From IMG/VR virus record IMGVR_UViG_3300032240_002045, positions 1 through 64,000 of that record: a stretch of DNA of 64,000 nt, one strand, 5' to 3'. How positions within the stretch are numbered: the first letter of the stretch is position 1; each line of letters begins with the position of its first letter. Position numbers and translations under genes: made by a program. Shown here piece by piece: positions 206 through 63,999 of the stretch. The notes beneath the pieces are model-generated. The model was not told the origin of the DNA, made no database searches, and was given only the letters and a program-made list of their open reading frames with translations. This stretch comes from a virus.

Positions 206-243
206 CAAAAAGCCCCCGGTTATTAGCCGGGGGCTTTTTGTTG
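206..243. terminator. Bidirectional intrinsic terminator
   Basis: AAAAAGCCCCCGG-TTATTAG-CCGGGGGCTTTTTG between convergent genes. Confidence 0.9.
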
Positions 244-255
244 TTTGTGTTGGGG

Positions 256-11576: not shown

Positions 11577-11837
11577 TCAGTTTAAGGGCTTCGTTACACC
11601 TTCTGGGTCGTAAACACTTACAGCTTTAACTTTTAAAGTTTCTTGTAAATCACGTGCGTGGTGTCCGCAGAACAATAGCTCACCATTTAAAAAAGTAGCA
11701 ACAACTTTTGCAGCAGCGCTGCAAGAGTCACATCGATCCTGAAGCGTCAGCTCCCGTGCCGGCGTCTGCAGATCCGTTGTTGTCATTCTGCGCTCCTTCG
11801 GTAGTAGTTTGTCCGTGTTGTACATCGCCAATGCCAC
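11577..11837 (-). CDS. Small actinobacterial Zn-binding protein
   Basis: LTLQDRCDSC...GELLFCGHH; real start is probably MTTT at 11789. Confidence 0.7.
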   Translation of the reverse strand: MALAMYNTDKLLPKERRMTTTDLQTPARELTLQDRCDSCSAAAKVVATFLNGELLFCGHHARDLQETLKVKAVSVYDPEGVTKPLN

Positions 11838-11945
11838 TCATACCGCCCCAATAAGAAGGCCAATACGGAATAACAACCCCGCCAACTCGTAAACCTAATT
11901 TAGAGTTTAAAGTGACGTGTTTGTGTTGGCGATGTTTTTTAGGCA

Positions 11946-12245: not shown

Positions 12246-12535
12246 CGGCGCTTCATCTCTCTTTCTTTGGTCCGCTTAGCGTCTAACTTCTTAGCTTTAA
12301 GTTTTGCAAGCGCTGCCCCACTTACTGGGCCACCTAACATATCTGGGTTGGCGTTGGCTTCTTGCACAGTTGGATTTAAATTAACAGCGTTGTTAGCTCC
12401 TTGAACGCCTGAAGCAACATCTCTCTTAAAGCGCTGCTCACTCGTCATTCCTCGAGTAATATTCATTTCTCCAATAGCTTGATCTAATGCACGCTTTTCA
12501 AGACCCAGCTGTGAATCACCTTTACGATAAATCAT
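12242..12535 (-). CDS. Small basic hypothetical protein
   Basis: ATGA overlaps on both sides. Confidence 0.6.
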   Translation of the reverse strand: MIYRKGDSQLGLEKRALDQAIGEMNITRGMTSEQRFKRDVASGVQGANNAVNLNPTVQEANANPDMLGGPVSGAALAKLKAKKLDAKRTKEREMKRR

Positions 12536-12825
12536 TTTTCATTCTCCTTCTTGCCTGCACGACGCTTGTTCTCTTTTGCTGTGTTCTTGCTTCTAGAGAT
12601 AGCGCGGAGGTTACCTTTAGAGTCATTACTATGATTGTTGTCTTTATGATCAACAGTTGTGTTCTTAGACTTAATCTTACCGTTAGTTGACTCATAATCA
12701 GCACGAGCTTTGTTTTTAGAAGTAGTAACCCATTTATCTCCTACTTTTTTCTTGTAGACGTAGATAGGGCGTCCGCCATTAGCGTCACTTCCCTTATACG
12801 GACCAAACTTCTTTGTTTCTGCCAT
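12532..12825 (-). CDS. Small HNH-motif protein
   Basis: VDHKDNNHSNDSKGNLRAISRSKN. Confidence 0.7.
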   Translation of the reverse strand: MAETKKFGPYKGSDANGGRPIYVYKKKVGDKWVTTSKNKARADYESTNGKIKSKNTTVDHKDNNHSNDSKGNLRAISRSKNTAKENKRRAGKKENEK

Positions 12826-14910: not shown

Positions 14911-15138
14911 CTATTTGCTTTTAAAAGTCAGGGCGTATTTTGCATATGCCAGAATAAGCATATCTGTGAGCTTATCTTTGCTCTCTGGGTGCTTTTCCTT
15001 AAAATGATCACGCCACTGAATTGCGGTGAATTTACTGCTGGCACAGCCATTATTAATGTCATCCCAGATAAGTTTGCTAAAGACGTTTGTACGCGAAGGC
15101 GTGTCTAAGTTATCAAAGAGCCACGTATTAAAAGTCAT
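14911..15138 (-). CDS. YozE/SAM-like small protein
   Basis: MTFNTWL...FSKLIWDD pattern; leaderless promoter. Confidence 0.5.
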   Translation of the reverse strand: MTFNTWLFDNLDTPSRTNVFSKLIWDDINNGCASSKFTAIQWRDHFKEKHPESKDKLTDMLILAYAKYALTFKSK

Positions 15139-15160
15139 GGGGGAAAGATAGCAAGTACAG

Positions 15161-15256
15161 TTATACTTTAAAGTCTAAAGATTCAAACTCATCTACAGCA
15201 TCATCCAAAGTTCGTTCAACATGCTCAGCTGTGCAATCGCCACAATTTCTACACAT
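15161..15256 (-). CDS. 31-aa Cys-rich micro-protein MCRNCGDCTAEH...
   Basis: Read by hand; TAAACT-N6-ATG leaderless start. Confidence 0.55.
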   Translation of the reverse strand: MCRNCGDCTAEHVERTLDDAVDEFESLDFKV

Positions 15257-15573
15257 GATTATAGTTTAGCTTCAAAACGGGAAAAAGCAGGGTAATTACA
15301 CCGCGGTTGCTACTAACCCCAAAGCCCTTTTCGCCTCCACAGCTTTATAGTAAACAAGCGCTTGCCACGTATTGCAAATTCTAAGAGTAGACGGCTGCGC
15401 TTGTGATCATCTGATAGCTGATACGCCCGAAAGACACCAGTGCGTTTTAAATATCTTTCAAGATAGCGCTCTAGCTCTGGTGACAATTCTTCGCTCATAC
15501 AACAACCTTAACACATTTGGCTACTGCCTTGTCAACAGGTGTACCTCTTCAAAAATTTTGATAGGGTGTCTTT

Positions 15574-16557
15574 ATGAAATGTGGCACTTACTCTGGTTAC
15601 AAAAAACATAGAAAAGATAAAAGCTTTATTTGTCAACCCTGCAGATTGGCTATGAATGCCTATCGTAGGGAGTACAACAAGCGTAAGCCTGAGAAGAATG
15701 CTCAATACCATGCTAAGTACAAAGCAAAGTTTGCTCCTGCTAAGGAGGCTGAAAGGGCTGCTAAGAAAGCTGCTCGTGATATTGCGTCTGCAGAAAAGGC
15801 TCAAAAGCTCGCGGTTGCTCGTGCAGAGCGTGCTGCACTCAAAGAAGCTCGCAGGATTGAGAGAGAAGCAGAGTTAGCTAAGATAAAGGCTAACAAAGCT
15901 AAAGTTAGTGCTGCTCAGATGCGTGATGTTCTTAGGTATATCAGGTACCAAAGGCTGCTCATTAATAGCCAACTTAAGAAGCATGCACGTCAAGAGGCTA
16001 TTAATGCTCAAAAAGAACAAGCTAGATTAGCCAAAGAGGTTGCGGTTGCAGAAGAGCAACTTAGACGTCAGCAACGTGAGCAACATAGGCAACTTATGCT
16101 CAACCAGCATGGAACTAGCATTGGTGATTACTCTCGTTGTAAGAAGGCTAACACCACAGCTTGCGCAGACTGCTTAAAAGCAGCCTCCGCCTACCGCAAA
16201 GCTCAAGTAGCAAGAGACCCTGAAAAATTTAAACAACAAAAGAAAAAGTATTTAAAAGCTAATCCTAATAGACGCCATCACAGCAATAGAGATCGTGCCC
16301 GCAAGAAGGGCGTGCCTAGCCAGTACTACACCCGCCAACAGATCTTTAATCGTGATGGCTACGACTGTTACCTATGTAACCTGCCTGTAGATCTCACCGC
16401 GAACCATGTTCAGGGCCAACCTGGTTGGGAGCTGTATCCGCACGTTGAGCACGTTATCCCACTAGCACTCGGTGGCCATGACACCTTAGATAATGTCAAG
16501 ATTGCTCACGCTATTTGTAACATCCGCAAAGGGGTCTCCGCGCCTGTTGCCGTTTAG
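15574..16557 (+). CDS. HNH endonuclease with two (C/H)GT-Y..CxxC modules and a coiled coil
   Basis: RDGYDCYLC...HVEHVIPLALGGHDTLDNVKIAHAICNIRKG. Confidence 0.85.
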   Translation: MKCGTYSGYKKHRKDKSFICQPCRLAMNAYRREYNKRKPEKNAQYHAKYKAKFAPAKEAERAAKKAARDIASAEKAQKLAVARAERAALKEARRIEREAELAKIKANKAKVSAAQMRDVLRYIRYQRLLINSQLKKHARQEAINAQKEQARLAKEVAVAEEQLRRQQREQHRQLMLNQHGTSIGDYSRCKKANTTACADCLKAASAYRKAQVARDPEKFKQQKKKYLKANPNRRHHSNRDRARKKGVPSQYYTRQQIFNRDGYDCYLCNLPVDLTANHVQGQPGWELYPHVEHVIPLALGGHDTLDNVKIAHAICNIRKGVSAPVAV

Positions 16558-16672
16558 GGCTACGGACTTGAGGTCACCCTTGTTACCTACGGCTGAACAC
16601 TGGTGGCTTCCAAATTGTCGACTTTTCCTAACCGTGGGGGGGTCTTCTGACCAGTCATAGTTTGCGAGTGCT

Positions 16673-16746
16673 CGGCGTGTCGCTTGCATTCGTGTGGCGT
16701 GTGCACTATCTTTCATTTATCGCCACAAGGCGAGCCGATAGGAAGG
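16673..16746 (+). promoter_or_regulatory. Cassette 1 promoter and leader
   Basis: CGGCGTGTCG box, TTGCAT-N17-TATCTT, 5' hairpin 16720-16733, CCGATAGGAAGG RBS. Confidence 0.75.
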
Positions 16747-16752
16747 CATAAC

Positions 16753-16923
16753 ATGACACCAGAAATAGGCGATTGGTACACGACACACAATAGCGGGGTG
16801 ATTGGTTGGGTCTGTGAAATAGTTCCCAACCGCACTGGCACATTCCGCTTGCGCTTGCGCACTGTGGACTTAGACATCAAATGGACGACTTTCATTCCAG
16901 AGGGTGTTAAGGTGAGCGCATGA
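16753..16923 (+). CDS. Small hypothetical early protein
   Basis: ATG after the GGAAGG RBS; ATGA overlap with the next gene. Confidence 0.7.
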   Translation: MTPEIGDWYTTHNSGVIGWVCEIVPNRTGTFRLRLRTVDLDIKWTTFIPEGVKVSA

Positions 16924-17789
16924 GCACAATTAAGGAAGACATCACCGCGCTACTCGTTAAGGCGCTCGAGGAAGGCAATGCGCCATGGCGTAAGGGTTGG
17001 GTTGGTGGCATGGCGCCAACATCTCTTGCAACGGGTAAACCGTATCAAGGCATCAACACTCTCATTCTCTCTCTACTAGGTGAGGGATACGCGCACCCGC
17101 TCTGGCTCACATATAAACAAGCCGAGGCCCTAGGCGGTAACGTCAAGAAGGGCGAGAAGTCGGTCCGCGTAGTTTACGCAGCGCAGAAGTCAATCGAGCC
17201 AACCGAGGAGAAGGAGGGCACAAGCTTCTTCTTCTATAAATGGTTTAACGTGTTCAACGTAGATCAATGCGAAGGTATCGAGATCCCCGCACAATTCTTG
17301 CCTACTGGTGAGACCGTCGAGCCACTCGATGCCATTAACACTCTATGGGATGGATACACCAACCGCCCGGAGATGTTCTACAGCGAACAGGGCCGGGCCT
17401 TCTATTCACCTTCGGCCGATTCGATCACGCTTCCAACCTTGCATCAATTCAAGAGCGCAGAAGAGCACGCGTACACCTTCGCTCATGAGATGATTCATTC
17501 AACTGGACACGAGTCCCGCACCAACCGTTGGAAGAATGCGGAAGACAAGCCAAGCCGATTTGGATGCGACACCTACGCCAAGGAAGAATTAATCGCAGAA
17601 GTAGGCGCATGCATGTTGCTAGCGAGCGCCGGGGTTGAATTCGATATCCCTAACTCTGCAGCCTACCTTCGCTCATGGATCAAGGCTTTAAACGATGACA
17701 AGAGCCTAATCTTTAAAGCATCAGCGAAAGCACAAGCAGCAGCCAACTACATCACCGGGGTCAAAGTACAAGAGGAGGTGAATGCATGA
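16920..17789 (+). CDS. ardC: ArdC-family ssDNA-binding antirestriction protein with zincin-like domain
   Basis: PWRKGW, Y.GIN...L, WLTYKQA..LGG.VKKGEK, VFNVDQ, HEMIHSTGH, YAKEELIAE. Confidence 0.9.
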   Translation: MSTIKEDITALLVKALEEGNAPWRKGWVGGMAPTSLATGKPYQGINTLILSLLGEGYAHPLWLTYKQAEALGGNVKKGEKSVRVVYAAQKSIEPTEEKEGTSFFFYKWFNVFNVDQCEGIEIPAQFLPTGETVEPLDAINTLWDGYTNRPEMFYSEQGRAFYSPSADSITLPTLHQFKSAEEHAYTFAHEMIHSTGHESRTNRWKNAEDKPSRFGCDTYAKEELIAEVGACMLLASAGVEFDIPNSAAYLRSWIKALNDDKSLIFKASAKAQAAANYITGVKVQEEVNA

Positions 17790-17890
17790 ACCGCCTACTT
17801 ACTTCACTAGTGCAGCTAGTACTGCTAGGAGTCACCGCGCCGTTGGTTGTATTAATGGTCAAAGACTTCCGCGAGAATAAACTCGAATAG
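17786..17890 (+). CDS. 34-aa single-TM peptide MNRLLTSLVQLVLLGVTAPLVVLMVKDFRENKLE
   Basis: Read by hand; GGAGG SD and ATGA overlap. Confidence 0.65.
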   Translation: MNRLLTSLVQLVLLGVTAPLVVLMVKDFRENKLE

Positions 17891-17912
17891 CTTTCCCCCT
17901 ATCGGAAAACAC

Positions 17913-17940
17913 AGAGCCCCGGCCCAACAGCTGGGGCTTT
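17913..17940 (+). terminator. Cassette 1 terminator
   Basis: AGAGCCCCGGC-CCAACA-GCTGGGGCTTT. Confidence 0.8.
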
Positions 17941-17956
17941 GCTGTTGGCCGGCGCA

Positions 17957-18011
17957 TTTGTTTGTGTTGGCCCACCCGCCCCGTTTATAAGGGAGTATGT
18001 ATGTAGAGAGA
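17957..18011. repeat. Conserved inter-cassette element, copy 1
   Basis: TTTGTTTGTGTTGGCCCACCCGCCCC...AAGGGAGTATGTATGTAGAGAGA. Confidence 0.85.
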
Positions 18012-18020
18012 TACACAGCC

Positions 18021-18041
18021 TGTGGATAAACCTGTGGATAA
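18021..18041. promoter_or_regulatory. Two tandem perfect DnaA boxes
   Basis: TGTGGATAA (reverse complement TTATCCACA) at 18021 and 18033. Confidence 0.7.
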
Positions 18042-18065
18042 AGTTATCTAATTGTTATACAACTA

Positions 18066-18144
18066 CGGCGTGTCGCTATTGGTTTTGTCGGTGAGTTAGT
18101 TTAGATTTATCTCATCAAGCAAACGGCTTGATTACCGATAGGAG
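18066..18144 (+). promoter_or_regulatory. Cassette 2 promoter: GTGTC box plus RecA-NDp/PafBC-type motif
   Basis: CGGCGTGTCG, TGTCGG-N10-TAGATT (18086-18107), 5' hairpin ATCAAGC/GCTTGAT, CCGATAGGAG. Confidence 0.75.
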
Positions 18145-18152
18145 AACAGAAA

Positions 18153-18638
18153 GTGACTACAACAACTAAGCCAACAGTACGCGAGGCTAAATTGGTAATT
18201 GACCACCAATTCACCCGTTTCATGGACGGTCAATACATTGACCCCCTAGCACTAGACATCATTGGCTATTCCGTAGCAAATGAAATGCAAATCCGCGATT
18301 ACCTTTTGGGGTACTCAATGGAAACAGGCGATAACACCCTCGCCGTCAAGTATGTAGCTCACCTAATTGAGCAAGGTATCTCCGAACAGTATCGTCACGC
18401 TTTCTATACTGTGCTTTCCGCGCTTTACTTTATGGACGGCGATAGCGACCTTGCTTTCTTAGCACTAGATGAGGCGAAAGCCCTCAAATCTGATTACGCC
18501 CTTGCTGGCTTGCTAACACGCGTCTATGGAACAGGGTGGAACAGTCAAGAGTTTCGCTCTATGACTGTGGAACTGCACCCAAAAGTGCTAAGCACGATAG
18601 AGGACATAGCAGACAACACGATTGAGCAAATCGCTTAA
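18153..18638 (+). CDS. DUF4192-like protein
   Basis: IRDYLLG...A..ALDEA......Y.LA.LL pattern. Confidence 0.55.
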   Translation: MTTTTKPTVREAKLVIDHQFTRFMDGQYIDPLALDIIGYSVANEMQIRDYLLGYSMETGDNTLAVKYVAHLIEQGISEQYRHAFYTVLSALYFMDGDSDLAFLALDEAKALKSDYALAGLLTRVYGTGWNSQEFRSMTVELHPKVLSTIEDIADNTIEQIA

Positions 18639-18648
18639 ATCCGCAATT

Positions 18649-18676
18649 CTCCCTGAGCATGGAGTTAAACTGCTCA
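18649..18676 (+). ncRNA. Compact H-type pseudoknot in an intergenic leader
   Basis: CTCC/GGAG and TGAGCA/TGCTCA crossing stems with TTAAAC loop. Confidence 0.55.
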
Positions 18677-18707
18677 CCCAACAACTACCGATAGGAAAGG
18701 TAATACC

Positions 18708-19124
18708 ATGTCAAGAGCATTAACAGTAAAAGTGCCGGTTACAAAAGTAATTGCGGCATTAGAGGCATCACTAGCAAAACTAGAAAAGGACTACTCAACT
18801 CAAGAGGGAAAGGAGGCTAAGTACCAAAAGGCACGCGAGGCATGGATTAAAGAACTAACCAACTATGCCATAGCAAACATCAAGAGCGCGGTTAATTTCC
18901 GTACTAACTATCGCGAATGGAATAACACCCTTAACATTGACTATGACATCACAGTTAATGAAAAGGACTTACCAAAAGAGCCGGAAAAAGATTTCGTTAC
19001 TATTCATCAACACTCTTACAATGATAGTAAAGAGGAAATCGAAAGTGCCCTCCGCATCTTAAAGATGACCGACGAGGAGTTCGTTGCCGCATCTACTATG
19101 AAAGCAATCTCCAAATACCTATGA
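18708..19124 (+). CDS. Hypothetical early protein
   Basis: CCGATAGGAAAGG RBS; coiled-coil N-terminus. Confidence 0.8.
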   Translation: MSRALTVKVPVTKVIAALEASLAKLEKDYSTQEGKEAKYQKAREAWIKELTNYAIANIKSAVNFRTNYREWNNTLNIDYDITVNEKDLPKEPEKDFVTIHQHSYNDSKEEIESALRILKMTDEEFVAASTMKAISKYL

Positions 19125-19207
19125 CTATGATGCCTGTCTGTGGGGAGTGCCGTAAGGCACTCTCCCCAGACGAATACGGATACGGACACGATTGTGAGGG
19201 GGAATGA
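19121..19207 (+). CDS. 28-aa CxxC...HxC micro zinc-finger
   Basis: MTMMPVCGECRKALSPDEYGYGHDCEGE; ATGA overlaps at both ends. Confidence 0.6.
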   Translation: MTMMPVCGECRKALSPDEYGYGHDCEGE

Positions 19208-19404
19208 TGAAAAAGCCTACATGTGCTAATTGCGGGGTGTTCCTTAAAGATGAGGAGATCCTCAACGCTATCTATTGGAATACGATCCTGTTTGGTAGCG
19301 AGCGCGTAGCTGAAGCTAATTGCGAAAAGTGCGAGGACTTTAACTACGCTAAAGAAAACTCAATCATTAAAGAACCACACCACAAGTACGATTGGCGGGT
19401 ATAG
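19204..19404 (+). CDS. Small CxxC...CxxC protein
   Basis: CANC...CEKC; coupled start. Confidence 0.65.
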   Translation: MMKKPTCANCGVFLKDEEILNAIYWNTILFGSERVAEANCEKCEDFNYAKENSIIKEPHHKYDWRV

Positions 19405-19430
19405 TTGGAGGCATGATGTAAACAATACTT

Positions 19431-19620
19431 AGGCGCTAGATCGGGCGCCTGTCTTATAAATGAGTCGATCTAGCTCGGCGGTCGGTGAACAGGAACCGCA
19501 CATGGGAAAGCTGCCACCCTCTGGCAGGTTATTAAGGCTCGCAATGATAAACGAGTAAGAGTGCCGTAGTCGGTACCGCCTTTGGGATCGCCCCGTAGCT
19601 AATCAGCTGCGGGGCTTTCT
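19431..19620 (+). ncRNA. Candidate structured non-coding RNA ending in a terminator
   Basis: ORF-free; multiple nested helices (see findings); GCCCCGTAGCT/AGCTGCGGGGC terminator. Confidence 0.5.
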
Positions 19621-19640
19621 CATGCTCGCGATTCGCGGAA

Positions 19641-19699
19641 TGTTTGTGTTGGCCCGCCCTCCCCATTCTATTTCATAGGGAATACATACAGGAGAGAGA
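19641..19699. repeat. Conserved inter-cassette element, copy 2
   Basis: TGTTTGTGTTGGCCCGCCCTCCCC...ATAGGGAATACATACAGGAGAGAGA. Confidence 0.85.
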
Positions 19700-19724
19700 T
19701 TTATAACGATTTGATAACGCTTTG

Positions 19725-19809
19725 CGACACGCCGTTGAAATGGTAGGAGATGTCGGTGGCATGCATTACCTTGTGCTTGTGGGTAACAATGCCTACAACA
19801 CGATAGGAG
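19725..19809 (+). promoter_or_regulatory. Cassette 3 promoter: inverted GACAC box plus RecA-NDp/PafBC-type motif
   Basis: CGACACGCCG, TGTCGG-N10-TACCTT (19751-19772), CGATAGGAG RBS. Confidence 0.75.
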
Positions 19810-19815
19810 ATTCAA

Positions 19816-20379
19816 GTGGGTTATTACGTAGATTTGGTGGATGCTGATTTTATCATCCCTGAGACAGAAGAGGTACTGCAGGCACTCCGCGAGATGCCTA
19901 AGAAGTACAAGTCAATACAGCGCGGTGGCTCATCTAATGGAGATAAGTGGTTCTCATGGATGAATGATGAAGAGATAGAGAGTGCTGAGAGTGCCCAATC
20001 TATATTTGAGGCTCTCGGATTTGAGTGCGAGAAGGACAAGTACGGGACTCCAAATACTTTCTCCCTGGAGTCATACAACAGCAAGACTGGACAAGAAGAC
20101 CTCTTCCTAGCCGTCGTTGCTCAATTCATGCCAGATGATGCATATACAGAGTGGCGCGGTGAAGACGGCGAGATTTGGCGCTACACAGTCAAGGGTAAGA
20201 AACTGATGGTTCAATCCTCTCGTATTGAGTGGAATTATCCTGAGACTTTCCGCGTGGCAAAATTCCATTCAACTGGCTCTTTCAAGGATAATACCTACCA
20301 ATCGCACACAATCTATGTAGACCCATATGAAGATGTGGATGCACAGATTCAAGCAAAATTGGAGAAGGTAAATGCCTAA
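19816..20379 (+). CDS. Hypothetical early protein
   Basis: GTG after RBS; SK.GQE..FL..VA......Y.EWRGEDG..WR motif. Confidence 0.8.
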   Translation: MGYYVDLVDADFIIPETEEVLQALREMPKKYKSIQRGGSSNGDKWFSWMNDEEIESAESAQSIFEALGFECEKDKYGTPNTFSLESYNSKTGQEDLFLAVVAQFMPDDAYTEWRGEDGEIWRYTVKGKKLMVQSSRIEWNYPETFRVAKFHSTGSFKDNTYQSHTIYVDPYEDVDAQIQAKLEKVNA

Positions 20380-21034
20380 CTGGGTCACTAATGAATTAAC
20401 AATCGAATGTGCTGATAGAGATTACCTACTAGCGGTTGGGGCGCGGTTACGCGCTCCAATCCCTGGAAGGGACGGTGACATTCATATAGTTACAGATACC
20501 AAGTTCTCATTTTGGAATATCACTGCTCCTACTGATTTAGATGCTTATCACAGCGTTTGCGATTCAGAGGGGATGAAGAACCCTGATAACTGGTACAACT
20601 GGAACATACGTAACTGGGGAGTTAAGTGGGATGCACGAGTTCATTCTGCTGATGTCAATCATGACTCCCTGACTTATGATTTTGATACAGCCTGGGCTCC
20701 ACCAATCAAAGCCTTAGAGTCTTTATGCGAAGAGTTACCTGACCTTAAGATTACCCTCCGCTACGTTGAAGAACAGGGCTGGGGTGGAGTTATGGTCTTT
20801 AAAGAAGGTGAGACTTATGAGATTGAGGAGTGGGATATCCCTGAGTCTCATGAAGAGGCTGTAAAGGCTTTTGGCGAGTGCTATCACTGCGACGACATTG
20901 GTAATCTCTATGGTGACTGCCCAGAAGCCATAGCATCACAGTCTCACGATCGTGACATTGAGTTAATGGGAGAATGCCGGTGGTGCGAGATTAACGAAGA
21001 TGGTCGCTACGACGATTGTCCGCCAAATGAGTAA
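20372..21034 (+). CDS. YubB/DUF1281 ferredoxin-like protein with two C-terminal Cys/His repeats
   Basis: MPNWVTNEL, WYNWNIRNWGVKWDA, FDTAWAPP. Confidence 0.8.
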   Translation: MPNWVTNELTIECADRDYLLAVGARLRAPIPGRDGDIHIVTDTKFSFWNITAPTDLDAYHSVCDSEGMKNPDNWYNWNIRNWGVKWDARVHSADVNHDSLTYDFDTAWAPPIKALESLCEELPDLKITLRYVEEQGWGGVMVFKEGETYEIEEWDIPESHEEAVKAFGECYHCDDIGNLYGDCPEAIASQSHDRDIELMGECRWCEINEDGRYDDCPPNE

Positions 21035-21110
21035 GGCAAGATGCCCGTGGTGCGGGGATGACTACGAAGTAACAGCGTGGGATCCACCGCACGAATGTAA
21101 GAAAGACTAA
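21027..21110 (+). CDS. 27-aa CxxC...HxC micro zinc-finger
   Basis: MSKARCPWCGDDYEVTAWDPPHECKKD, overlapping the upstream stop. Confidence 0.55.
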   Translation: MSKARCPWCGDDYEVTAWDPPHECKKD

Positions 21111-21134
21111 GTTTCCTCCTATCGGAAACGCCAG

Positions 21135-21163
21135 GCCCTAGCTGAGAAATCGGCTGGGGCTTT
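21135..21163 (+). terminator. Cassette 3 terminator
   Basis: GCCCTAGCTGA-GAAA-TCGGCTGGGGC-TTT. Confidence 0.8.
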
Positions 21164-21181
21164 GTGCGTTGCGCTTGCGGA

Positions 21182-21236
21182 TTTGTTTGTGTTGAAGCCC
21201 ACCCTCCCTCATTAGGGAAATAGGAGGAGGAGAGAG
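21182..21236. repeat. Conserved inter-cassette element, copy 3
   Basis: TTTGTTTGTGTTGAAGCCCACCCTCCC..ATTAGGGAAATAGGAGGAGGAGAGAG. Confidence 0.8.
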
Positions 21237-21305
21237 TGACCAGTCATGACTGCTTATGACCAGTTATAGGCGTGACTGGTCAGAGTTTATTAGTTGGGCG
21301 TCTTG

Positions 21306-21380
21306 CGGCGTGTCGATTGGATTAAGCGAGGAAGCCGAGTAAGTTGATCCTGTGGACATAAGTTCACCAAGAGATAGGAG
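21306..21380 (+). promoter_or_regulatory. Cassette 4 promoter and leader
   Basis: CGGCGTGTCG, TTGGAT-N17-TAAGTT, 5' hairpin GTGGAC/GTTCAC, GATAGGAG. Confidence 0.7.
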
Positions 21381-21386
21381 AAAATA

Positions 21387-21677
21387 GTGAGTGAGATGGG
21401 CAAGTTTTACAATGAGAGAGGCAAGGCCTTTTATAACCGTTATTACAAGCAATTAGAAGGCGCCAAGATAGTTCGCTATTACGGCATGTCTGAAGGAGAG
21501 TTCCCTACCTTTGAAGTGGAGTTATCTAACTGTCAGATTATTAAGATAGAGATCTCCCGCGATCCTGAGGGCAATGGCGGTGGCTTTGTGTTTGGTCTAA
21601 ATCATCCTGATATGGCTGACTGGGATAAGAAGCAAGCCCTATTAGCCCAATTACTGGAGGAGGAAGCTCATGCCTGA
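21387..21677 (+). CDS. Hypothetical early protein
   Basis: SRDPEGNGGGF motif; RBS. Confidence 0.75.
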   Translation: MSEMGKFYNERGKAFYNRYYKQLEGAKIVRYYGMSEGEFPTFEVELSNCQIIKIEISRDPEGNGGGFVFGLNHPDMADWDKKQALLAQLLEEEAHA

Positions 21678-21993
21678 GACGCTACCCTGCAGCGAGCGCA
21701 TTCGCGGTGAGCTAGCTCAGCGCAATGCCATGCTGCGCCAGGTTATGGACAATCCCAACCATGATGATTACTTTGATGACCCAGCTTTATCTATAGATCA
21801 CATGGATGTAACCCGCGTTTGTTTCTCTTACGGCGGTCCAAGCGACTACCTGGAGATCACCCACAATGGGCGGGACATTATTAAAGCCGAGTACCTGTTC
21901 CATGACTGGTATGACGGTGCCCGCGTGTCGGTCGACGAGGGCACGCCTATGTATGAGTATGCTAAAACCCTATTAGAGAACCAGGAGATGTAA
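21670..21993 (+). CDS. Hypothetical early protein
   Basis: SYGGPSD...Y.FHDWYDGA motif; GGAGG SD. Confidence 0.75.
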   Translation: MPETLPCSERIRGELAQRNAMLRQVMDNPNHDDYFDDPALSIDHMDVTRVCFSYGGPSDYLEITHNGRDIIKAEYLFHDWYDGARVSVDEGTPMYEYAKTLLENQEM

Positions 21994-22227
21994 ATGGAGC
22001 TTATGACGAGAGGTACCCTGCGGGGCACACAGCTGCAAAACGGAGCGCTGTGCATCGAGAGTTGGCAGATCAACCAGGATGAGCACGTAGTTCTAGCTCT
22101 GCGGGAGCATTCTTATGATCCCTATGTAGTGTGGACAGCTACAGAGGATGGAATCTGTTCCCGCGGCGATTACTGCCGCACGATCCAGGAGGCTGTAGCT
22201 GCAGCTGAGCGGAGGGCGGGGGTCTAA
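21994..22227 (+). CDS. Hypothetical early protein
   Basis: Coupled ORF; DPYVVW...GDY. Confidence 0.7.
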   Translation: MELMTRGTLRGTQLQNGALCIESWQINQDEHVVLALREHSYDPYVVWTATEDGICSRGDYCRTIQEAVAAAERRAGV

Positions 22228-22430
22228 TGGAAGGAACAATGACAAAAGAAGCTGTAGACACCCTGGTAGAGAGCTTCCTAGCTATTAAAGAGTGGGACGT
22301 TGTAGTCAATGCCCTGGCTTTGGAGGTATTAATAGCCATTCCGCGCTCGCCAGGTGATAGCTACACAGACGAAGAATGCGTTGAAATGATAGCTGAGGTG
22401 ACTGATCACTGGAGGAAGCTCAAGAGTTGA
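22227..22430 (+). CDS. Hypothetical early protein
   Basis: Coupled ORF; YTDEEC motif. Confidence 0.65.
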   Translation: MEGTMTKEAVDTLVESFLAIKEWDVVVNALALEVLIAIPRSPGDSYTDEECVEMIAEVTDHWRKLKS

Positions 22431-22446
22431 GTCGACACGGCTCAAG

Positions 22447-22488
22447 TTTGCTGAGCTGGCTGGGCGCGAGCCTGGCCGGCTCGGCAAA
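22447..22488. terminator. Long hairpin ending cassette 4
   Basis: TTTGCTGAGCTGGCTGGGC-GCGA-GCCTGGCCGGCTCGGCAAA (19 bp with G-U pairs, GNRA loop). Confidence 0.7.
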
Positions 22489-22538
22489 TGTTTGTGTTGG
22501 CCCACCCACCCCATAAGGGAATATATATAAAGAGAGAG
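22489..22538. repeat. Conserved inter-cassette element, copy 4
   Basis: TGTTTGTGTTGGCCCACCCACCCC-ATAAGGGAATATATATAAAGAGAGAG. Confidence 0.85.
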
Positions 22539-22902
22539 GTGATGCAGCTCACGGCGTGTTGCTATTGACTTATCCGGCCCATTCTGCCATGGGGCTCAAT
22601 TGTCGACAAAGCGATTTGCCGATCTAGGCTACTGCTAATTGTCGACAAAGCAACACTGCGGATACGGCCAGATTTACAGCCCATTCCCAGAATGACTTAG
22701 CTGATAACTACTAAGAGAGAGAGAGAGCAAGAGAGAGAGAAAGCCTTACAGGCTCAAATAGCCCTCTAGCCCTCAATATAACGATTAGATAACAATATGA
22801 CTATGAGCGTGGGAGAGCCTTGACTCTCTATGTATCCCTATGGTTATCATTCTCTTAACGGTGAAGGTATCACCGCGATATAAATTACAGTGAGGTATTA
22901 AC

Positions 22903-23040
22903 ATGGCAAAGAAAGCGTTCACACGCATTATTGATATAGAGACTGGCGAGGAGCTAGTTTCAGCTGATTTAACCGAAGCTGCTGCAAAGCGCTTCATTAA
23001 GTACTATCAGGTATTCGGCATATATGGAAAGGTGGCTTAA
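22903..23040 (+). CDS. 45-aa hypothetical protein MAKKAFTRIIDIETGEE...
   Basis: Read by hand; GAGG SD, upstream TTGACT promoter and 5' hairpin. Confidence 0.65.
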   Translation: MAKKAFTRIIDIETGEELVSADLTEAAAKRFIKYYQVFGIYGKVA

Positions 23041-23042
23041 TC

Positions 23043-23624
23043 ATGGCTATTGAGCAAGTCCTATATAAGGACTACCTAATCTCTATTGAACCTGATATGG
23101 AGCCTATGAACCCCCGCGAGTGGGATAACTTCGGCACTATGGTGTGTTTCCACAATAAGTACCGCCTAGGCGATACACACACTATTGATTCTCCCGACTT
23201 TAGCTCATGGAGCGAGGTGCGTGACTACATTGAGGCTGATCTAGGTGGCATGGTTATCCTGCCTCTATTCTTATATGACCATAGTGGTATCTCTATGTCA
23301 GTAGGTGCTCCCCGCGCCCAACACGCTTCATGGGATAGTGGTCAAGTTGGGTTTATTTATTGTACTGATGGCGACATGGTGCGCGAAAACCTCAAGGATC
23401 TTGAGCAAGCCGAAGCCTTACTTCGTGGTGAGGTTGCTGCATATAACCGTTACTTAACTGGAGACGTATATACCTACCGCATTGAGAAAGCTTCAACCTG
23501 TGATAGTTGTAATCATACCTCCGCGGAATTTGTAGACTCATGCAGTGGTTGGGATAGCGTCGATGATGCTATGAAAGAGGCTATGCAAGTAGTTGACTAC
23601 CAAGCTGCGCAGGTGAGCGCATGA
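23043..23624 (+). CDS. Conserved hypothetical phage/plasmid protein
   Basis: NPREWDNFGTMVCFH..Y.LGD, YDHSG, WDSGQVG, YL.GDVY, DSCSG. Confidence 0.8.
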   Translation: MAIEQVLYKDYLISIEPDMEPMNPREWDNFGTMVCFHNKYRLGDTHTIDSPDFSSWSEVRDYIEADLGGMVILPLFLYDHSGISMSVGAPRAQHASWDSGQVGFIYCTDGDMVRENLKDLEQAEALLRGEVAAYNRYLTGDVYTYRIEKASTCDSCNHTSAEFVDSCSGWDSVDDAMKEAMQVVDYQAAQVSA

Positions 23625-23764
23625 GTCAAGATCAAGAGTCAATTAGCTGGGGAGAGTTGGCGGAGCTAACTCATGCAACCCAAGTTGAACGGTTTAATTG
23701 GTGCTCATGCGAAGAGCAAGAGGACTTTCCCTATTCAGACTGCCCAAGAAAGGAGTTAGTATGA
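23621..23764 (+). CDS. 47-aa protein with H...CSC...YSDCP motif
   Basis: Read by hand; ATGA overlaps at both ends. Confidence 0.65.
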   Translation: MSQDQESISWGELAELTHATQVERFNWCSCEEQEDFPYSDCPRKELV

Positions 23765-24015
23765 CAAGAAAGTACTCTGTAAGAAAAGAAGTTGAACCCC
23801 GAAAATATTGTTCTGTGCAGTTTGATATGCAGATACGACTAGATTCTCCTGAAATAACTGATGAGCAATTAGAAAAGCTTATAGTTAACTTGAGAAAGTA
23901 TTCTAGAAAAGCCACGTATGACTCCGGGGTTCGAGCCCGTATGGTGCTTGTAACGGCGCAAGTTGGAGAAGCAAAAGTTGTCCCAGAGCAACATCCAGGA
24001 AAGGGGTTAGTATGA
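23761..24015 (+). CDS. Hypothetical protein
   Basis: AGGAG SD before MTRKYS. Confidence 0.6.
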   Translation: MTRKYSVRKEVEPRKYCSVQFDMQIRLDSPEITDEQLEKLIVNLRKYSRKATYDSGVRARMVLVTAQVGEAKVVPEQHPGKGLV

Positions 24016-24120
24016 GCTATAAGATAACCGCAGAAGTTGATGATCAATGGTTTGAGATTCTAGGCCAAATTACACGTCACCAAGAGGGTTTCGTGTGGAT
24101 GGGGGTAGAGGAGAATAAAG

Positions 24121-24351
24121 ATGGATTATGAGACAGTTAACCTAATAGTTGGGAGTATTAAAGTGTGTAAAAAAATACGCGCTACCGCCGTCATAGAGTA
24201 CGATATTGAAGAGGTACTAAGAGATTTACGTACGGACTTCCCTGATGAGGAGTTTACAGAAGAGAGTGTTGTGGATATGATTCATAACTGGATTAAAGAC
24301 GACTTCGGGAATACCCTCGCGGACGTCAGAATTGAGGAGATCAATGGCTAA
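24121..24351 (+). CDS. Hypothetical acidic protein
   Basis: GAGGAG SD. Confidence 0.6.
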   Translation: MDYETVNLIVGSIKVCKKIRATAVIEYDIEEVLRDLRTDFPDEEFTEESVVDMIHNWIKDDFGNTLADVRIEEING

Positions 24352-24634
24352 GAGAGTAACTGCTAACTTTAATGGTGAGCTTCGTAAAAACAATGTCAGA
24401 GGTGGTGGTTGGATTGCAGAATATTCAGTTACTCGAGCTGATCTAGATAAGCCTGTAGCTGCAAATTATTCAGCGTGGGCTAACCCATCAGCTGGTAAGA
24501 AGTGGTTGAAAGAGATGGTGCTAGCCCATACTCCTAAGAAGAGTATCAAGATGGTTGCCGGTACGGATAAAGATGATAAAGGTAAGCCTATTTACTTTAA
24601 TGGCGACGTTCCCTTTAAGGTTGATTTGGTTTAA
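24344..24634 (+). CDS. Hypothetical protein
   Basis: GAGGAG SD before MAKRVTA. Confidence 0.7.
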   Translation: MAKRVTANFNGELRKNNVRGGGWIAEYSVTRADLDKPVAANYSAWANPSAGKKWLKEMVLAHTPKKSIKMVAGTDKDDKGKPIYFNGDVPFKVDLV

Positions 24635-24816
24635 TGGAAGAGATCATTCCTGAGCCTAATTGGCTCCCAAGCGCTGACCCAACCGCAATTCCATATGAGG
24701 ATGATGAGGAAGATGAAGACGATCACGATCACGAAGACGACGGTGACGACGACGGTGACTACGACAAGCATGCACTTGACGAAATTACCTTTGGATTCAC
24801 CCAACCTACTAACTGA
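24634..24816 (+). CDS. Very acidic small protein
   Basis: Asp/Glu tract; TAATG coupling. Confidence 0.5.
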   Translation: MEEIIPEPNWLPSADPTAIPYEDDEEDEDDHDHEDDGDDDGDYDKHALDEITFGFTQPTN

Positions 24817-24947
24817 GCTGTACTCATACCTTGAAGATCAAGAGAGTTTAACTAAAACATAAGAGCGTTAAAGCATATCTAAACCTTTCTGATGCTAAGG
24901 ACGGTCATGACTCTCTCACTAGACGAGCCGCACCTGCGCTACTTATG

Positions 24948-24980
24948 AAAAAACCCCCGGTTATTAGCCGGGGGTTTTTA
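24948..24980. terminator. Bidirectional terminator (same core as 213-233)
   Basis: AAAAAACCCCCGG-TTATTAG-CCGGGGGTTTTT. Confidence 0.9.
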
Positions 24981-24987
24981 CTATTTG

Positions 24988-27012
24988 TTATGCCTTAGGC
25001 ACTTCACAAAAATCTGTTGAACAATACTTTTCACCGATTGCATCTGCAGCCATTCCTGCGTATACATCAGTAAAATCAATTGGCAAGAGAGTAAGAGTGT
25101 AAGCTTCGTAATCTTCTTTAGTCATCTGTGTGTATGGCATCTGTGGATAAGTCATATTACCCATAGGTAAGAATGAGACAGTCTTTAATTGTCCGTCGAA
25201 CATATGAAGTACAGTTCCAACCGCGTCTTTTTCCTTCTCCGCATCAAAAGAGATCGTTACTGATACAGAGTTGTCGGACCAATGGCGTTGAGCCATAGCT
25301 GCAATTGAAGTCTTCTCGTAAATAGATACATCTTTTTCTGATCGAAGAGCAAGAGATTTAATTGGGAAAAACGTTACAGAAGTTCCGGTTGGATCTTCAC
25401 TTGCTGGTTCAATACGATATCCGGAAGCTTTGAACAATGGGAGCATGGGATCTTCGTTAGCAAAACGAATGGCACGAAGGAAGTACTCACCGCCCGGTGT
25501 CCAGTGAACGCCAGGTGATTCACCAGCCAAGATTGACACTGTGCCTGATGGCTTTACAGTTGTTGTCTTGATTGATTCACGGATACCAAGCCACTCTGAG
25601 TATGACTTATCGTATGACTGGATCTTTTCGTATCCCGCATCCATCCATTCACGTAGTGTTGGTAGCCCTACACGATCTGCAAAGTTAGCTATACCTGAGA
25701 TTGAAGTTCCAATACGACGATTGCGTTGCATGATCGCGTTGGTTTCTTCCCAATGTGTAGGCAATAGAGTTACAGTCTTTGCGTATAGGTAGGCAAACTT
25801 AAGTGTGCGCTTGAAGTCTTCCAAGTTGTCATGGCGATTTAAGTAAGTTTCTACCAATGTGCAACACTCAAATGATTCAAGTGATTGTTCTGCGCATGGG
25901 TTGTAACCCGCAGCTCGCCAGTCCTTGTTGTTAGGTGGATCAATGAGACGACCATACTTACGTGTCACGTCCATCCAAATAACACCCGGCTCACCATTCA
26001 AAGCTATGCCTTCAACAATGTGGTTCATGTCGTCTCCAACATTAACTTCCACGCTGTTGTTAGACATCCACGCCCAACCCGGTGCTGCTGGATCATATGA
26101 GTTGCGCTCTGGGTATACCGCTGGGTTCTTTAGGTTTAGGAAGTCCTTGTCATCAAGGCGACCCATGAGTAGCTCTGCTGATCTGCGAACGTTACCGCTT
26201 ACAACACAAACTCCGATCAAGTTACCGATATCAGCAATATCACGACGAGTTAGCTTCTCTCCCGCACGTCCCTTGAATAGGTTACGTACATAGTTGTGAA
26301 GCTTCTCTAGTGGTTCGTGTCCCGCGGCTGTTCCTCCAAAGGTTTTGATCGGAGTTCCGGCTGGTCTGATTTGTGAGTAGTCAAATACTGGGCTCTTCTG
26401 ATCTGGCTTAAGGTAGCTATTGATGACTGTGGTAACTGAGTCGACCCAACCTTCGCGGGTATCTGGGATAACGATTGGTTCTGTATCTGGTTCTGGTGCA
26501 TAGATTGTAAAGTCCTTATCTGCCCCTTTATCATCGAAGCCGACACCCACGCCAAGCATGGAGGCTTCCATTAAGAAGGCGAATGGTTTAGCTGGGTTGA
26601 TCTTGGTCATCGAGTCGGTTGATACGAATGAACAATTTTGTAGCGCTGCTGAGTTCTTCTGCTCATTAACAAGAGGAGTACCCATAACCCATAGTCCGCG
26701 ACCCGGCGGGGTCCACTTCAAATTAAAGAGTCGATCAAACGCTTCTTTAGCTGAGGACTGAGCCTTTGAGTCATTCCAAGGTAGTCGCTGGCTTTTAGCG
26801 TGATCCTTTTGGATTGAGTACATGCCGTTAACTACTCGCTCGCATACATCTACCCAAGTCTCTTTGGTGCCATCCTCTTTCAAACGGGAGTATGTTCGGA
26901 GAAAAGTAATCTCTCCAACTGAGTTTCCGCCAGCATCTTTATAGCCCCAAGGTACAGTTTTACCCTTGTAGCTGTTTACATGATCCTCGGCTAAACGAAA
27001 TGACAGTGCCAT
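24988..27012 (-). CDS. nrdJ: Class II (adenosylcobalamin) ribonucleotide reductase
   Basis: RTYSR, PPGRGLW, LQNC, GNVRRSAE, NPCAEQ.L, TTVKPSGTVS, C-terminal CSTDFC. Confidence 0.95.
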   Translation of the reverse strand: MALSFRLAEDHVNSYKGKTVPWGYKDAGGNSVGEITFLRTYSRLKEDGTKETWVDVCERVVNGMYSIQKDHAKSQRLPWNDSKAQSSAKEAFDRLFNLKWTPPGRGLWVMGTPLVNEQKNSAALQNCSFVSTDSMTKINPAKPFAFLMEASMLGVGVGFDDKGADKDFTIYAPEPDTEPIVIPDTREGWVDSVTTVINSYLKPDQKSPVFDYSQIRPAGTPIKTFGGTAAGHEPLEKLHNYVRNLFKGRAGEKLTRRDIADIGNLIGVCVVSGNVRRSAELLMGRLDDKDFLNLKNPAVYPERNSYDPAAPGWAWMSNNSVEVNVGDDMNHIVEGIALNGEPGVIWMDVTRKYGRLIDPPNNKDWRAAGYNPCAEQSLESFECCTLVETYLNRHDNLEDFKRTLKFAYLYAKTVTLLPTHWEETNAIMQRNRRIGTSISGIANFADRVGLPTLREWMDAGYEKIQSYDKSYSEWLGIRESIKTTTVKPSGTVSILAGESPGVHWTPGGEYFLRAIRFANEDPMLPLFKASGYRIEPASEDPTGTSVTFFPIKSLALRSEKDVSIYEKTSIAAMAQRHWSDNSVSVTISFDAEKEKDAVGTVLHMFDGQLKTVSFLPMGNMTYPQMPYTQMTKEDYEAYTLTLLPIDFTDVYAGMAADAIGEKYCSTDFCEVPKA

Positions 27013-63464: not shown

Positions 63465-63999
63465 ACAAATCTGTCAAACTAAGCGGAAGATTAATATCTT
63501 CACCGCATGCCTGACAAGCTTTCTTCACCTCCCCGAGGCGTGGTCCCGGGTTACGTTTAATAATTTCGTCAAGAATTTTAGTTCGGTCAGCCATACCTAA
63601 ACTAAGAGCTGTAGTTGCTCCAGAAGATGGTCGATCGTCAATTCCTGTAATACATCCAGCTAACAAAATGGTGTTAATTTCCGCCACAGTTTTATCTGTG
63701 TTATCAACCAACTTTTTTTGAACTATACCGTTTGGAAGAATTACAGAAACAGCCCCGCTTTTAGTTAACACTTTAAAGCTTCTGTCTGCAATTGGGTCTT
63801 CTAATGTTTGTGTTGGAACGTCTTCTACAAGGTCAATTTCTGCAGTTTGAGGTTGGTTACAATTTGGACATTGAATATTAAGAGAAAGAGTTTCCCCAAA
63901 AGTTGCTCTGCGAATACCGATTAAAATTGCGTCTCGATCACCCGAAAGCAAACTATCAATGTACTCTTTAGTAACTTCTTCATTTCCAAGTTTTACAAG
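63454..63999 (-). CDS. Tail assembly chaperone / T4 gp26-like protein (5' truncated)
   Basis: GDRDAIL..IR..TFG, CPNC, LP.G..Q, PGP.......C.AC. Confidence 0.8.
   Translation of the reverse strand, partial: LVKLGNEEVTKEYIDSLLSGDRDAILIGIRRATFGETLSLNIQCPNCNQPQTAEIDLVEDVPTQTLEDPIADRSFKVLTKSGAVSVILPNGIVQKKLVDNTDKTVAEINTILLAGCITGIDDRPSSGATTALSLGMADRTKILDEIIKRNPGPRLGEVKKACQACGEDINLPLSLTDLFRL

Follow-up and report, generated by a model that had tools for sequence, protein, structure and literature searches.

A conserved terminator-to-promoter junction element in the early-gene cassette array of an uncultured phage

The first 64,000 nucleotides of one 97,993-bp viral contig (IMG/VR record IMGVR_UViG_3300032240_002045; this whole stretch is hereafter called the window) carry an array of five plus-strand early-gene cassettes, whose four junctions share a conserved element (E1 to E4). 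The common order at these junctions is a terminator, the 12-mer TGTTTGTGTTG(G/A), the C tract CCCNCCCNCCC, AGGGA, GAGAG, an operator-like block, a CGGCGTGTCG box, a promoter, a leader hairpin, and GATAGGA. The original prediction, made from the letters of the window, had described such a shared layout, and all four elements are present where it had placed them. As judged by comparison of related contigs, the element is shown to be the point that uncouples the terminator side from the promoter side and, with them, the flanking cassettes, and its evolutionary role as a putative recombination joint is well supported. Taken as a whole, we favor the reading, with a probability of roughly 0.45, that it is the core of a portable terminator-to-promoter junction, combining a recombination patch with an insulator module that would act via single-stranded structure.

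Conservation of the element and proposed exchange of cassettes

In the 98-kb genome, TGTTTGTGTTG occurs as 10 exact copies, all on the plus strand, compared to about 0.03 expected from base composition. It is the commonest 11-mer of the genome whether or not the array is masked, and its one-mismatch count was reached by none of 100 shuffles. By scanning IMG/VR with TGTTTGTGTTGGCCCNCCC, we recovered 45 loci, many of them on contigs of 90 to 98 kb, and an unbiased sample of 80 relatives was drawn by means of a neighboring 493-aa protein. The 11-mer was found within the 10-kb flank at most of these 80 loci, down to about 55% protein identity. In the 10-kb flank of more distant relatives (50 to 53% identity of the neighboring protein), neither the 12-mer nor another repeated 12-mer was found, which is not proof of absence. 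All relatives examined had arrays of 3 to 8 junctions with reshuffled small gene families, arrays with the element were met on more than 45 IMG/VR contigs, and the clade carrying them consists of uncultured freshwater phages of roughly 90 to 98 kb, probably actinophages. Among 68 distinct copies of the element, 20 positions are invariant, namely, the 11-mer and nine C residues of CCCNCCCNCCC. Where the flanking genes are unrelated, the element is the best-conserved stretch (80 to 96% identity); E2, for example, matches a copy in the relative L033 at 88.7% identity across 97 nt, and the genes on both sides of that copy are unrelated. The 12-mer was not found in the literature that we searched.

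To compare the junctions, the array open reading frames (ORFs) were clustered into families, and 46 distinct complete junctions were examined in 982 intercontig pairs. The downstream family was the same in 25 pairs, and the upstream family was also common in only 2 of these; likewise, the same upstream family was found in 20 pairs, with a common downstream family in 2. Similarity on the terminator side accompanied the same upstream gene in 5/20 pairs compared to 8/962 otherwise, and similarity on the promoter side accompanied the same downstream gene in 4/25 pairs compared to 11/957 otherwise. The two kinds of similarity coincided in 1/13 and 1/15 pairs. Pairwise alignments covered the element and its right side only in 21 pairs, at least 13 of them beginning at the first base of the 12-mer, the left side and the element only in 10 pairs, and the element alone in 6; many pairwise homologies stop at the end of the element. 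One junction of L033 joins an E2-like element to a promoter like that of block 1 of the window, with a different gene behind it. Subtypes of the variable part of the element are uniform within a genome (four identical ones in the relative G001) and lie between unrelated genes in different genomes, and identical gene neighbors were met with no junction, with one junction, or with a junction-cassette-junction unit between them.

The genome encodes RecA, and no site-specific recombinase or transposase was found in it. Indeed, the absence of an integrase gene noted for the window holds across the whole 98-kb genome, in which PF00589 and PF00239 (integrase and resolvase) were unmatched and neither a Y1 transposase nor a relaxase was found. 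Because synteny breaks at the element, its two sides are uncoupled, RecA is present, and no recombinase was found, the element behaves like the PeSL (promoter early stem-loop) junctions of phage T4, a comparison already drawn in the original prediction and apt as an analogy (PMC2839356, PMC4122927). That prediction had also staked itself on the element being present in relatives and at synteny breakpoints, and both were seen. Its proposal that cassettes are exchanged at the element is supported by the comparison of relatives, but exchange is not confined to the element: only 4/15 similar operator/promoter blocks share the gene behind them, and genes are also reshuffled within cassettes. We propose that cassettes would be gained, lost, and reassorted by general homologous recombination across the shared patch of about 25 to 55 bp, the partners being coinfecting relatives and also copies within one genome, as proposed for T4-type PeSLs.

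A different stretch, the short and conserved intercistronic spacer 18639-18707 of cassette 2, contains a hairpin (TGAGCA...TGCTCA), a CA-rich run (CCAACAAC), and GATAGGA. It links gene family F10 to differing downstream genes, namely, F16 in the window and in L042 and F3 in G001, and looks like a second kind of portable joint, located within cassettes.

The array in the window and its genomic context

The contig closes into a circular assembly by a 123-bp end overlap. Its GC content is 43%, and its genes lie nearly all on the minus strand, an arrangement broken up by the plus-strand island 15574-24816. The features of the array are as follows.

17959-17970, 19641-19652, 21184-21195 (ends in A), and 22489-22500, plus strand: 12-mer
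17971-17982, 19653-19664, 21198-21208, and 22501-22512, plus strand: C tract
Starts at 17990, 19677, 21214, and 22516, plus strand: AGGGA
Starts at 18006, 19692, 21230, and 22532, plus strand: GAGAG
16673, 18066, and 21306, and with one mismatch 22552: CGGCGTGTCG box; inverted at 19725
16558-16753, plus strand: junction 0, upstream of cassette 1, without the constant element; AATTGTCGAC at 16613, TGACCAGTCA at 16648, box 16673-16682 (read from the sequence)
16684-16689 and 16707-16712, plus strand: -35 TTGCAT and -10 TATCTT of the junction 0 promoter, then leader hairpin and GATAGGA 16737-16743 (read from the sequence)
16754-17890, plus strand: cassette 1; small ORF, ArdC-like protein 16920-17789 (ArdcN and zincin peptidase domains), small ORF
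17893-17946, plus strand: 3' trailer hairpin with CCCTATC in its loop, then terminator hairpin 1 (17908-17946)
17959-18012, plus strand: E1; 12-mer, CCCACCCGCCCC, AGGGA, GAGAG
18020-18152, plus strand: operator/promoter block 1; two CTGTGGATAA (18020, 18032), GTTAT-N6-GTTAT 18043-18058, box 18066-18075
18079-18084 and 18102-18107, plus strand: -35 TTGGTT and -10 TAGATT of the block 1 promoter, with TGTCGGTG 18086-18093, leader hairpin 18114-18132, GATAGGA 18137-18143 (read from the sequence)
18153-19404, plus strand: cassette 2; ORFs 18153-18638 (weak DUF4192 match), 18708-19124, and 19204-19404, followed by a structured stretch without ORFs reaching 19590
19590-19615 and 19626-19638, plus strand: terminator hairpin 2 and small GC hairpin
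19641-19698, plus strand: E2
19703-19815, plus strand: operator/promoter block 2; ATAAC-N6-ATAAC 19703-19718, inverted box 19725-19734, TGTCGGTG 19751-19758, -10 TACCTT 19767-19772, GATAGGA 19802-19808 (read from the sequence)
19816-21126, plus strand: cassette 3; ORF 19816-20379, Api92-like DUF1281_C protein 20372-21034, small ORF, trailer hairpin 21108-21126
21127-21170, plus strand: terminator hairpin 3
21184-21236, plus strand: E3; 12-mer ends in A, 2-nt insert before the C tract
21237-21386, plus strand: operator/promoter block 3; three TGACCAGTCA-type sites (21237, 21257, 21273), box 21306-21315, -35 TTGGAT 21317-21322, -10 TAAGTT 21340-21345, GATAGGA 21373-21379
21387-22430, plus strand: cassette 4; four small ORFs, three of them from families common to relatives
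22446-22489, plus strand: terminator hairpin 4 (20 pairs), its U-rich tail formed directly by the 12-mer
22489-22538, plus strand: E4
22539-22902, plus strand: operator/promoter block 4 (long); GTGA-N6-TCAC 22539-22552, box variant 22552-22561, two AATTGTCGACAAAGC (22598, 22637), GA repeat 22715-22739, ATAAC-N6-ATAAC 22778-22793
22903-24979, plus strand: cassette 5; ORFs to 24816, then bidirectional terminator 24949-24979 closing the array, without the constant element

Since the start of cassette 1 and the final terminator of the array both lack the element, its complete form is confined to places at which a promoter comes after a terminator. Most parts named in the original prediction are borne out, including the terminator hairpins at all four junctions and the contents of the variable blocks. 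The variable blocks do not, however, differ each time, as GTTAT/ATAAC pairs recur at 18043-18058 and 22778-22793, and of the CGGCGTGTCG box claimed for every junction, the copy at 19725 is present but inverted, which had been omitted. The predicted GATAGGA ribosome-binding site (RBS) does precede cassettes 1 to 4, and an additional one, at 18690, precedes an internal gene.

Every cassette comes with a separate promoter-like -35/-10 pair and a separate terminator. The promoters can be read as TTGNNT, 17 nt, and TANNNT immediately after the CGGCGTGTCG box, and the pattern TGTCGGTG-N8-TAnnnT is found at two of them (18086-18107 and 19751-19772). They lie 77 to 133 nt downstream of the conserved core and differ among junctions, while the core itself has no -10/-35 pattern. 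Among the 46 junctions, a small vocabulary of boxes is reused, namely, GTGA-N6-TCAC in 19, the GGCGTGTCG box in 16, GTTAT pairs in 11, and TGTGGATAA in 4. The last of these, a DnaA-like box, is found in nearly every junction of the palindromic form described below and mainly in arrays of that type. For the extended DnaA-like word CTGTGGATAA, two candidate-host genomes (1.2 to 1.4 Mb) gave 0 and 2 copies, and one 98-kb relative gave 7. A regulator acting at the operator slot would be as likely phage encoded as host encoded. Given the small number of recurring box types, the gating of each cassette by a different host regulator, as put forward in the original prediction, is a conjecture.

Several further observations were made in and around the array. 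The trailers of cassettes 1 and 3 (17893-17911 and 21108-21126) form small hairpins, TTTCC/GGAAA and GTTTCC/GGAAAC, whose loops carry CC(C/T)CCTATC, complementary to the RBS leader CCGATAGGAG that the cassettes share; no such hairpins stand behind cassettes 2 and 4. The long GA repeat at 22715-22739 consists of (GA)6-7 twice and falls within the leader region of 360 nt ahead of cassette 5, and GAGAG tracts recur in noncoding DNA of every relative. Two HNH endonuclease genes (15574-16557 and 12532-12825) adjoin the array, the one for a 327-aa protein standing immediately before cassette 1, where relatives have the constant element. Elsewhere in the window, tandem 18-nt coding repeats (GGATCAACAGCAAAGCCG and variants) are found on the plus strand at 4667-4800, inside the minus-strand ORF 4582-5721.

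The recognizable genes of the phage include baseplate J, gpD, a family A DNA polymerase, a class II ribonucleotide reductase, an SNF2 helicase, RecA, DnaB, DnaG, and a DnaC-like loader. Neither megablast at the DNA level nor tblastn with a 987-aa protein uncovered a cultured relative, and the nearest PolA proteins of cultured phages are those of Streptomyces phages (38% identity). The relative L056/L063 is a 7.3-kb contig (C44) in a metagenome-assembled genome (MAG) of Candidatus Nanopelagicaceae. It has a typical terminator and element, holds the sole 12-mer copy of that 1.3-Mb MAG, and is probably a phage fragment binned with its host. Because the polymerases are nearest to those of Streptomyces phages and a relative's fragment occurs in this MAG, the host is probably, as a guess, a freshwater actinobacterium, and the phage thus an actinophage; the assignment to the Nanopelagicaceae is a guess resting on that single, probably misbinned 7.3-kb contig. 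No cluster A-type repressor or integrase turned up, only a weak MerR/HTH_17 match in a 157-aa protein, although the repressor family itself was not searched for, and with that limit the phage looks lytic.

In the window, cassette genes with a recognizable match encode ArdC, the Api92-like DUF1281_C protein, and the weak match to DUF4192, and cassettes of relatives (L014, L003, and L028) contain DUF932, GP88, and an AAA_5 ATPase. This content resembles plasmid leading regions and antirestriction islands. The junction motif could thus act as a search handle for islands of accessory or counterdefense genes in uncultured freshwater phages.

Structure of the core, solitary 12-mers, and competing readings

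The element exists in two forms, EA, found in the window, and EB, a palindromic form found in other relatives, and EA/EB hybrids exist. In form EA, 28 copies have 2 to 5 extra bases between the 12-mer and the C tract, and in 21 of these the complement follows the C tract, so that a perfectly paired stem of 5 bp or more closes a C-rich loop of 10 to 11 nt. Fifteen different stem sequences close this loop; shuffled controls average 0.16 stems, with a maximum of 3. Since these are short stems with large loops, the C loop needs single-stranded nucleic acid. A second small hairpin (CCCT/AGGG) follows the C tract. In six relatives (L002, L004, L009, L015, L029, and L039), an inverted, boundary-type copy stands at a divergent array boundary, where the GAGAG tract opens a third covarying hairpin with loop GGGGAAGT and a U-rich tail. 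Such a copy, of which the window has none, looks like a complete small RNA gene of about 90 to 100 nt. RNAalifold found no structure common to all 68 copies, because the stems are confined to the insert-bearing class, and no known RNA family was matched in 15000-25500 at an E value of up to 1. Actinobacterial small RNAs such as 6C usually pair through unpaired loops rich in C (PMC6486639). Form EB consists of TGTTTGTGTTGGG, a variable palindrome, and CCCAACACAAACA (60 to 95 nt, with 20 to 24 perfect base pairs), followed within 2 to 12 nt by CCTGTGGATAAC. Its two arms share identical rare variants of the word, e.g., TGTTTGTGCTG or TGTTTGTGTCG.

For the molecular role of the core, we rank an insulator acting via single-stranded structure first. 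The core would be a boundary module, neither promoter nor terminator, in which the covarying stems would present the C-rich tract as a loop of 10 to 11 nt, most likely in RNA reading through the upstream terminator, and the strict 12-nt word would be the recognition sequence for a probably phage-specific partner. Two other structural or regulatory candidates were rejected. A G-quadruplex or i-motif is not general, as the four copies of the window and many others have only three C runs, and a promoter inside the element, on either strand, has no consistent -10/-35 pattern.

Several points weigh against the portable-junction reading. The remaining 40 EA copies, including the four of the window, have a fourth C and only a GG/CC(A) ministem (2 to 3 bp in the window), so that the evidence for the C-loop hairpin comes from relatives. 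RNA reading through the element is assumed, and we infer recombination from comparative patterns. Selection for evolvability alone cannot hold 20 positions invariant, and the insulator role that would do so is proposed. The basal stems of form EB (20 to 24 bp) are perfectly Watson-Crick paired, without G-U pairs in 28 elements, which fits DNA-level pairing or templated correction better than RNA. The last terminator of the array has no element, and 12-mers inside genes are not accounted for by a junction role. The perfect EB stems and the element-less array end are the main observations that every reading explains poorly.

Six of the 10 copies of the 12-mer lie outside the array, at 242, 11918, 63805, 72472, 76606, and 88635, and 3 of the 10 lie inside ORFs. 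The first three solitary copies are located in the window.

242-253, plus strand: solitary 12-mer directly behind a bidirectional terminator; same place in the relative G001
11918-11929, plus strand: intergenic solitary 12-mer; gives CCAACACAAACA in the minus-strand transcript, 81 nt before the DUF7455 gene 11577-11837
63805-63816, plus strand: solitary 12-mer inside the minus-strand ORF 63454-64248, antisense; encodes PTQT and arose by substitutions relative to G001

In four EA-type genomes, the exact 11-mer was counted 37 times compared to 0.4 to 0.6 expected from neighbors with 1 to 2 mismatches, and a control word was only 5- to 8-fold above its expectation. The in-ORF copies use two reading frames (xTQT and xNTN) at nonorthologous places, and 13 to 16 of them are antisense compared to 0 to 1 sense, against a background of 2:1. 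Solitary copies in G003 occur on both DNA strands and are all antisense to the local gene; hence, gene direction rather than genome polarity sets the orientation of the 12-mer. Conservation was seen for two intergenic copies beside hairpins, the one at 242 being shared with G001 and the one at 88635 with G001 and G005 with one mismatch. Solitary copies are exclusive to EA-type genomes (26 in 9 compared to 0 in 7 EB-type genomes or contigs), a split that may reflect one or two independent lineages only.

Some explanations of the solitary copies could be set aside. They are not insertions, as those in ORFs arose by substitutions without a change in length, nor are they due to a conserved peptide, given the two frames, unrelated proteins, and nonorthologous places. 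A host Chi- or KOPS-like motif was ruled out, the 12-mer being found 10 times in 81 genomes of the Nanopelagicaceae, the guessed host group, compared to 9 times for the reversed control word, and so was a mimic of host rrn boxA antitermination, since the rrn leaders and spacers of three candidate hosts carry ACCTTGAGAACTCAAC and nothing within 3 mismatches of the 12-mer. A genome-wide DNA polarity (direction of replication or packaging) is weakened by the copies on both strands in G003. Another word, TGTAATTGTT, has 7 copies, all on the plus strand (e.g., 48779, 54842, 55346, and 62730 in the window), and 4 and 0 on the two strands in G003. Across four genomes it is 5- to 8-fold above its mismatch neighbors and may be a codon-driven word or a second oriented motif.

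These solitary copies bear on two alternatives. The first, which we consider unlikely but place directly after the favored reading, is a polar stoperator-like site: the 12-bp word would be the asymmetric site of a clade-specific DNA-binding protein that halts RNA polymerase from one side. The blocking orientation would stand behind early terminators, only the permissive one would be tolerated inside genes, and the palindromic form would block both directions. Consistent with this, the word is strict and sharp edged, its exact copies are 60 to 100 times above the expectation from neighbors with 1 to 2 mismatches, it lies 0 to 20 nt behind terminator hairpins, and it is not enriched in the candidate-host genomes. 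The antisense bias in ORFs, G003 included, also fits, and 13-bp asymmetric, orientation-dependent stoperators are a precedent from actinophages (PMC9283540). However, the bias is statistically modest (P of about 0.002 to 0.03), the candidate protein partner is only postulated, and, unlike L5 stoperators, the word faces opposite ways with respect to transcription when the array is compared with the late genes. Moreover, the end of the array, where read-through would matter most, has no copy, and a polar site leaves unexplained both the covarying C-loop hairpin and the matching word variants in the two palindrome arms.

Next in our ranking, and likewise unlikely, is a regulatory RNA module, which would be made by read-through transcription in arrays or, in boundary-type copies, as a small RNA in its own right. 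The GU-rich 12-mer would be an antisense seed for CCAACACAAACA sites in other phage mRNAs, the C-rich loop would be an anti-RBS seed of actinobacterial type, and the palindromic form would sequester the seed in cis and would accordingly have no dispersed targets. If true, read-through RNA from the early region would coordinate the expression of the remaining genome without a chaperone. In agreement with this, for each solitary copy the gene containing or following it has CAACACAAACA in its sense transcript, and several sites lie just before the Shine-Dalgarno sequence or AUG (genome position 88635, L014 3880, and G003 43874). In the leader of the gene 88247-88609, CCAACACAAACA precedes the AUG by 26 nt. 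The restriction of solitary copies to genomes with an unpaired array 12-mer, the covariation of the palindrome arms even within the word, and the covarying hairpin with a U-rich tail at the end of boundary-type copies point in the same direction, and pairing of C-rich loops with G-rich RBS regions is documented (PMC6486639). On the other hand, the array copies of the window have no preceding promoter, most target sites lie deep within ORFs rather than at an RBS, and palindromic-type genomes also have a boundary-type copy yet no solitary sites. Furthermore, each genome type may be a single clade, so that the association may rest on one or two independent events. The 6C family, finally, was unmatched: its model (RF01066) gave nothing at an E value of up to 10 in the genome and four relatives, a search of limited sensitivity, as the control genome itself fell below the cutoff.

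A third alternative is a selfish hairpin element (MITE, PATE, or REP like) that would spread into terminator-promoter gaps and be functionless for the phage. This we regard as improbable. The palindromic form does have 12-bp terminal inverted repeats and sharp ends, subtypes are unlinked to their flanks and homogenized within genomes, and presence and absence alternate between identical gene neighbors. Nevertheless, target-site duplication is absent, and neither a Y1 transposase or relaxase nor an integrase or resolvase was found in the genome. The element keeps one fixed position and orientation between terminator and promoter, the whole junction comes and goes rather than the element alone, and the 20 positions stay invariant among phages with only 65 to 75% identity in their core genes.

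Still less probable is a role as a nick site. The virion DNA of T5 and some other phages contains site-specific single-strand nicks, and the element could be cut in a similar way by a phage nickase such as an HNH endonuclease. All copies lie on one strand in 7/8 genomes with unpaired-type arrays, and the two HNH genes are at hand in the window. Copies are found on both strands, however, in G003 and in all palindromic-type genomes, an adjoining HNH gene is present in only two of the compared arrays, and the C-loop hairpin would be left unexplained.

We give the least credence to an integron-like site-specific cassette system or a DNA-injection pause signal, the latter having been raised as an alternative in the original prediction. 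In their favor are the array of cassettes with hairpin-forming repeats between them and the DnaA-like boxes and repeats, which resemble the features described for the injection-stop region of T5. Against an integron-like system, no tyrosine or serine recombinase was found in the genome, every cassette has its own promoter, and a site-specific recombinase acting on the direct solitary copies, which span essential genes, would be lethal. As for injection, the circular assembly hides the entering end, and we know of no precedent for four to eight pause sites about 1.5 kb apart.

Comparison with known systems

As in integron attC arrays, tandem cassettes lie between imperfect palindromes with conserved ends and variable centers. 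Here, however, there is no integrase, a promoter and a terminator in every cassette take the place of a common promoter, the conserved ends measure 12 bp, and the order of the core sites is the reverse of that in attC. The element also differs from MITE and IS200-IS605 elements, in that no cognate Y1 transposase or relaxase was found and the palindromic copies are without flanking duplication.

The hairpin of the insert-bearing copies, whose stem varies while its C-rich loop (about 10 nt) is conserved, is reminiscent of the 6C small RNA (PMC6486639; RF01066), as is the presumed actinobacterial setting, although the four copies of the window form only a ministem. Apart from the absence of a match to RF01066, the element differs in having one C loop rather than two, and its array copies have neither a promoter nor a terminator of their own. 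With the stoperators of cluster A mycobacteriophages (PMC9283540), it may share a strict asymmetric word of 12 to 13 bp that recurs across the genome of an actinophage and is often located in short intergenic spaces in a nonrandom orientation. There are about 10 sites here compared to more than 20, and here the word is embedded in a larger structured element. Moreover, it is on the sense strand behind early cassettes and antisense in or near all other genes, whereas stoperators have one orientation.

The closest parallel is provided by the PeSLs, in which indels and replacements are bounded by short repeated junctions and exchange is attributed to general recombination (PMC2839356, PMC4122927). 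In both systems, short conserved terminator/promoter junctions are dense in a hyperplastic early region and flank small, mostly uncharacterized genes, a stem-loop terminator is part of each junction (here in relatives, too), and the motif delimits the indels or replacements seen between relatives, with no dedicated recombinase invoked. The conserved sequence of a PeSL is a sigma-70 promoter plus a stem-loop, whereas here the promoter and the terminator hairpin both vary, and what stays invariant is a distinct spacer module (12-mer, C tract, AGGGA, and GAGAG) with its own covarying hairpin. The junctions described here belong to another phage lineage and host phylum and are known from sequence comparison, while minicircles are a feature of PeSLs. 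What is new to explain is the invariant core, with its 60- to 100-fold overrepresented 12-nt word, its C-rich loop hairpin, and its palindromic alternative form, and identifying its partner would show how these phages insulate or coordinate early transcription. Overall, these junctions would represent a second, independent case of the PeSL principle, in a different phage lineage and host phylum, by which early accessory genes are kept as self-contained cassettes whose conserved junctions permit reshuffling without a dedicated recombinase.

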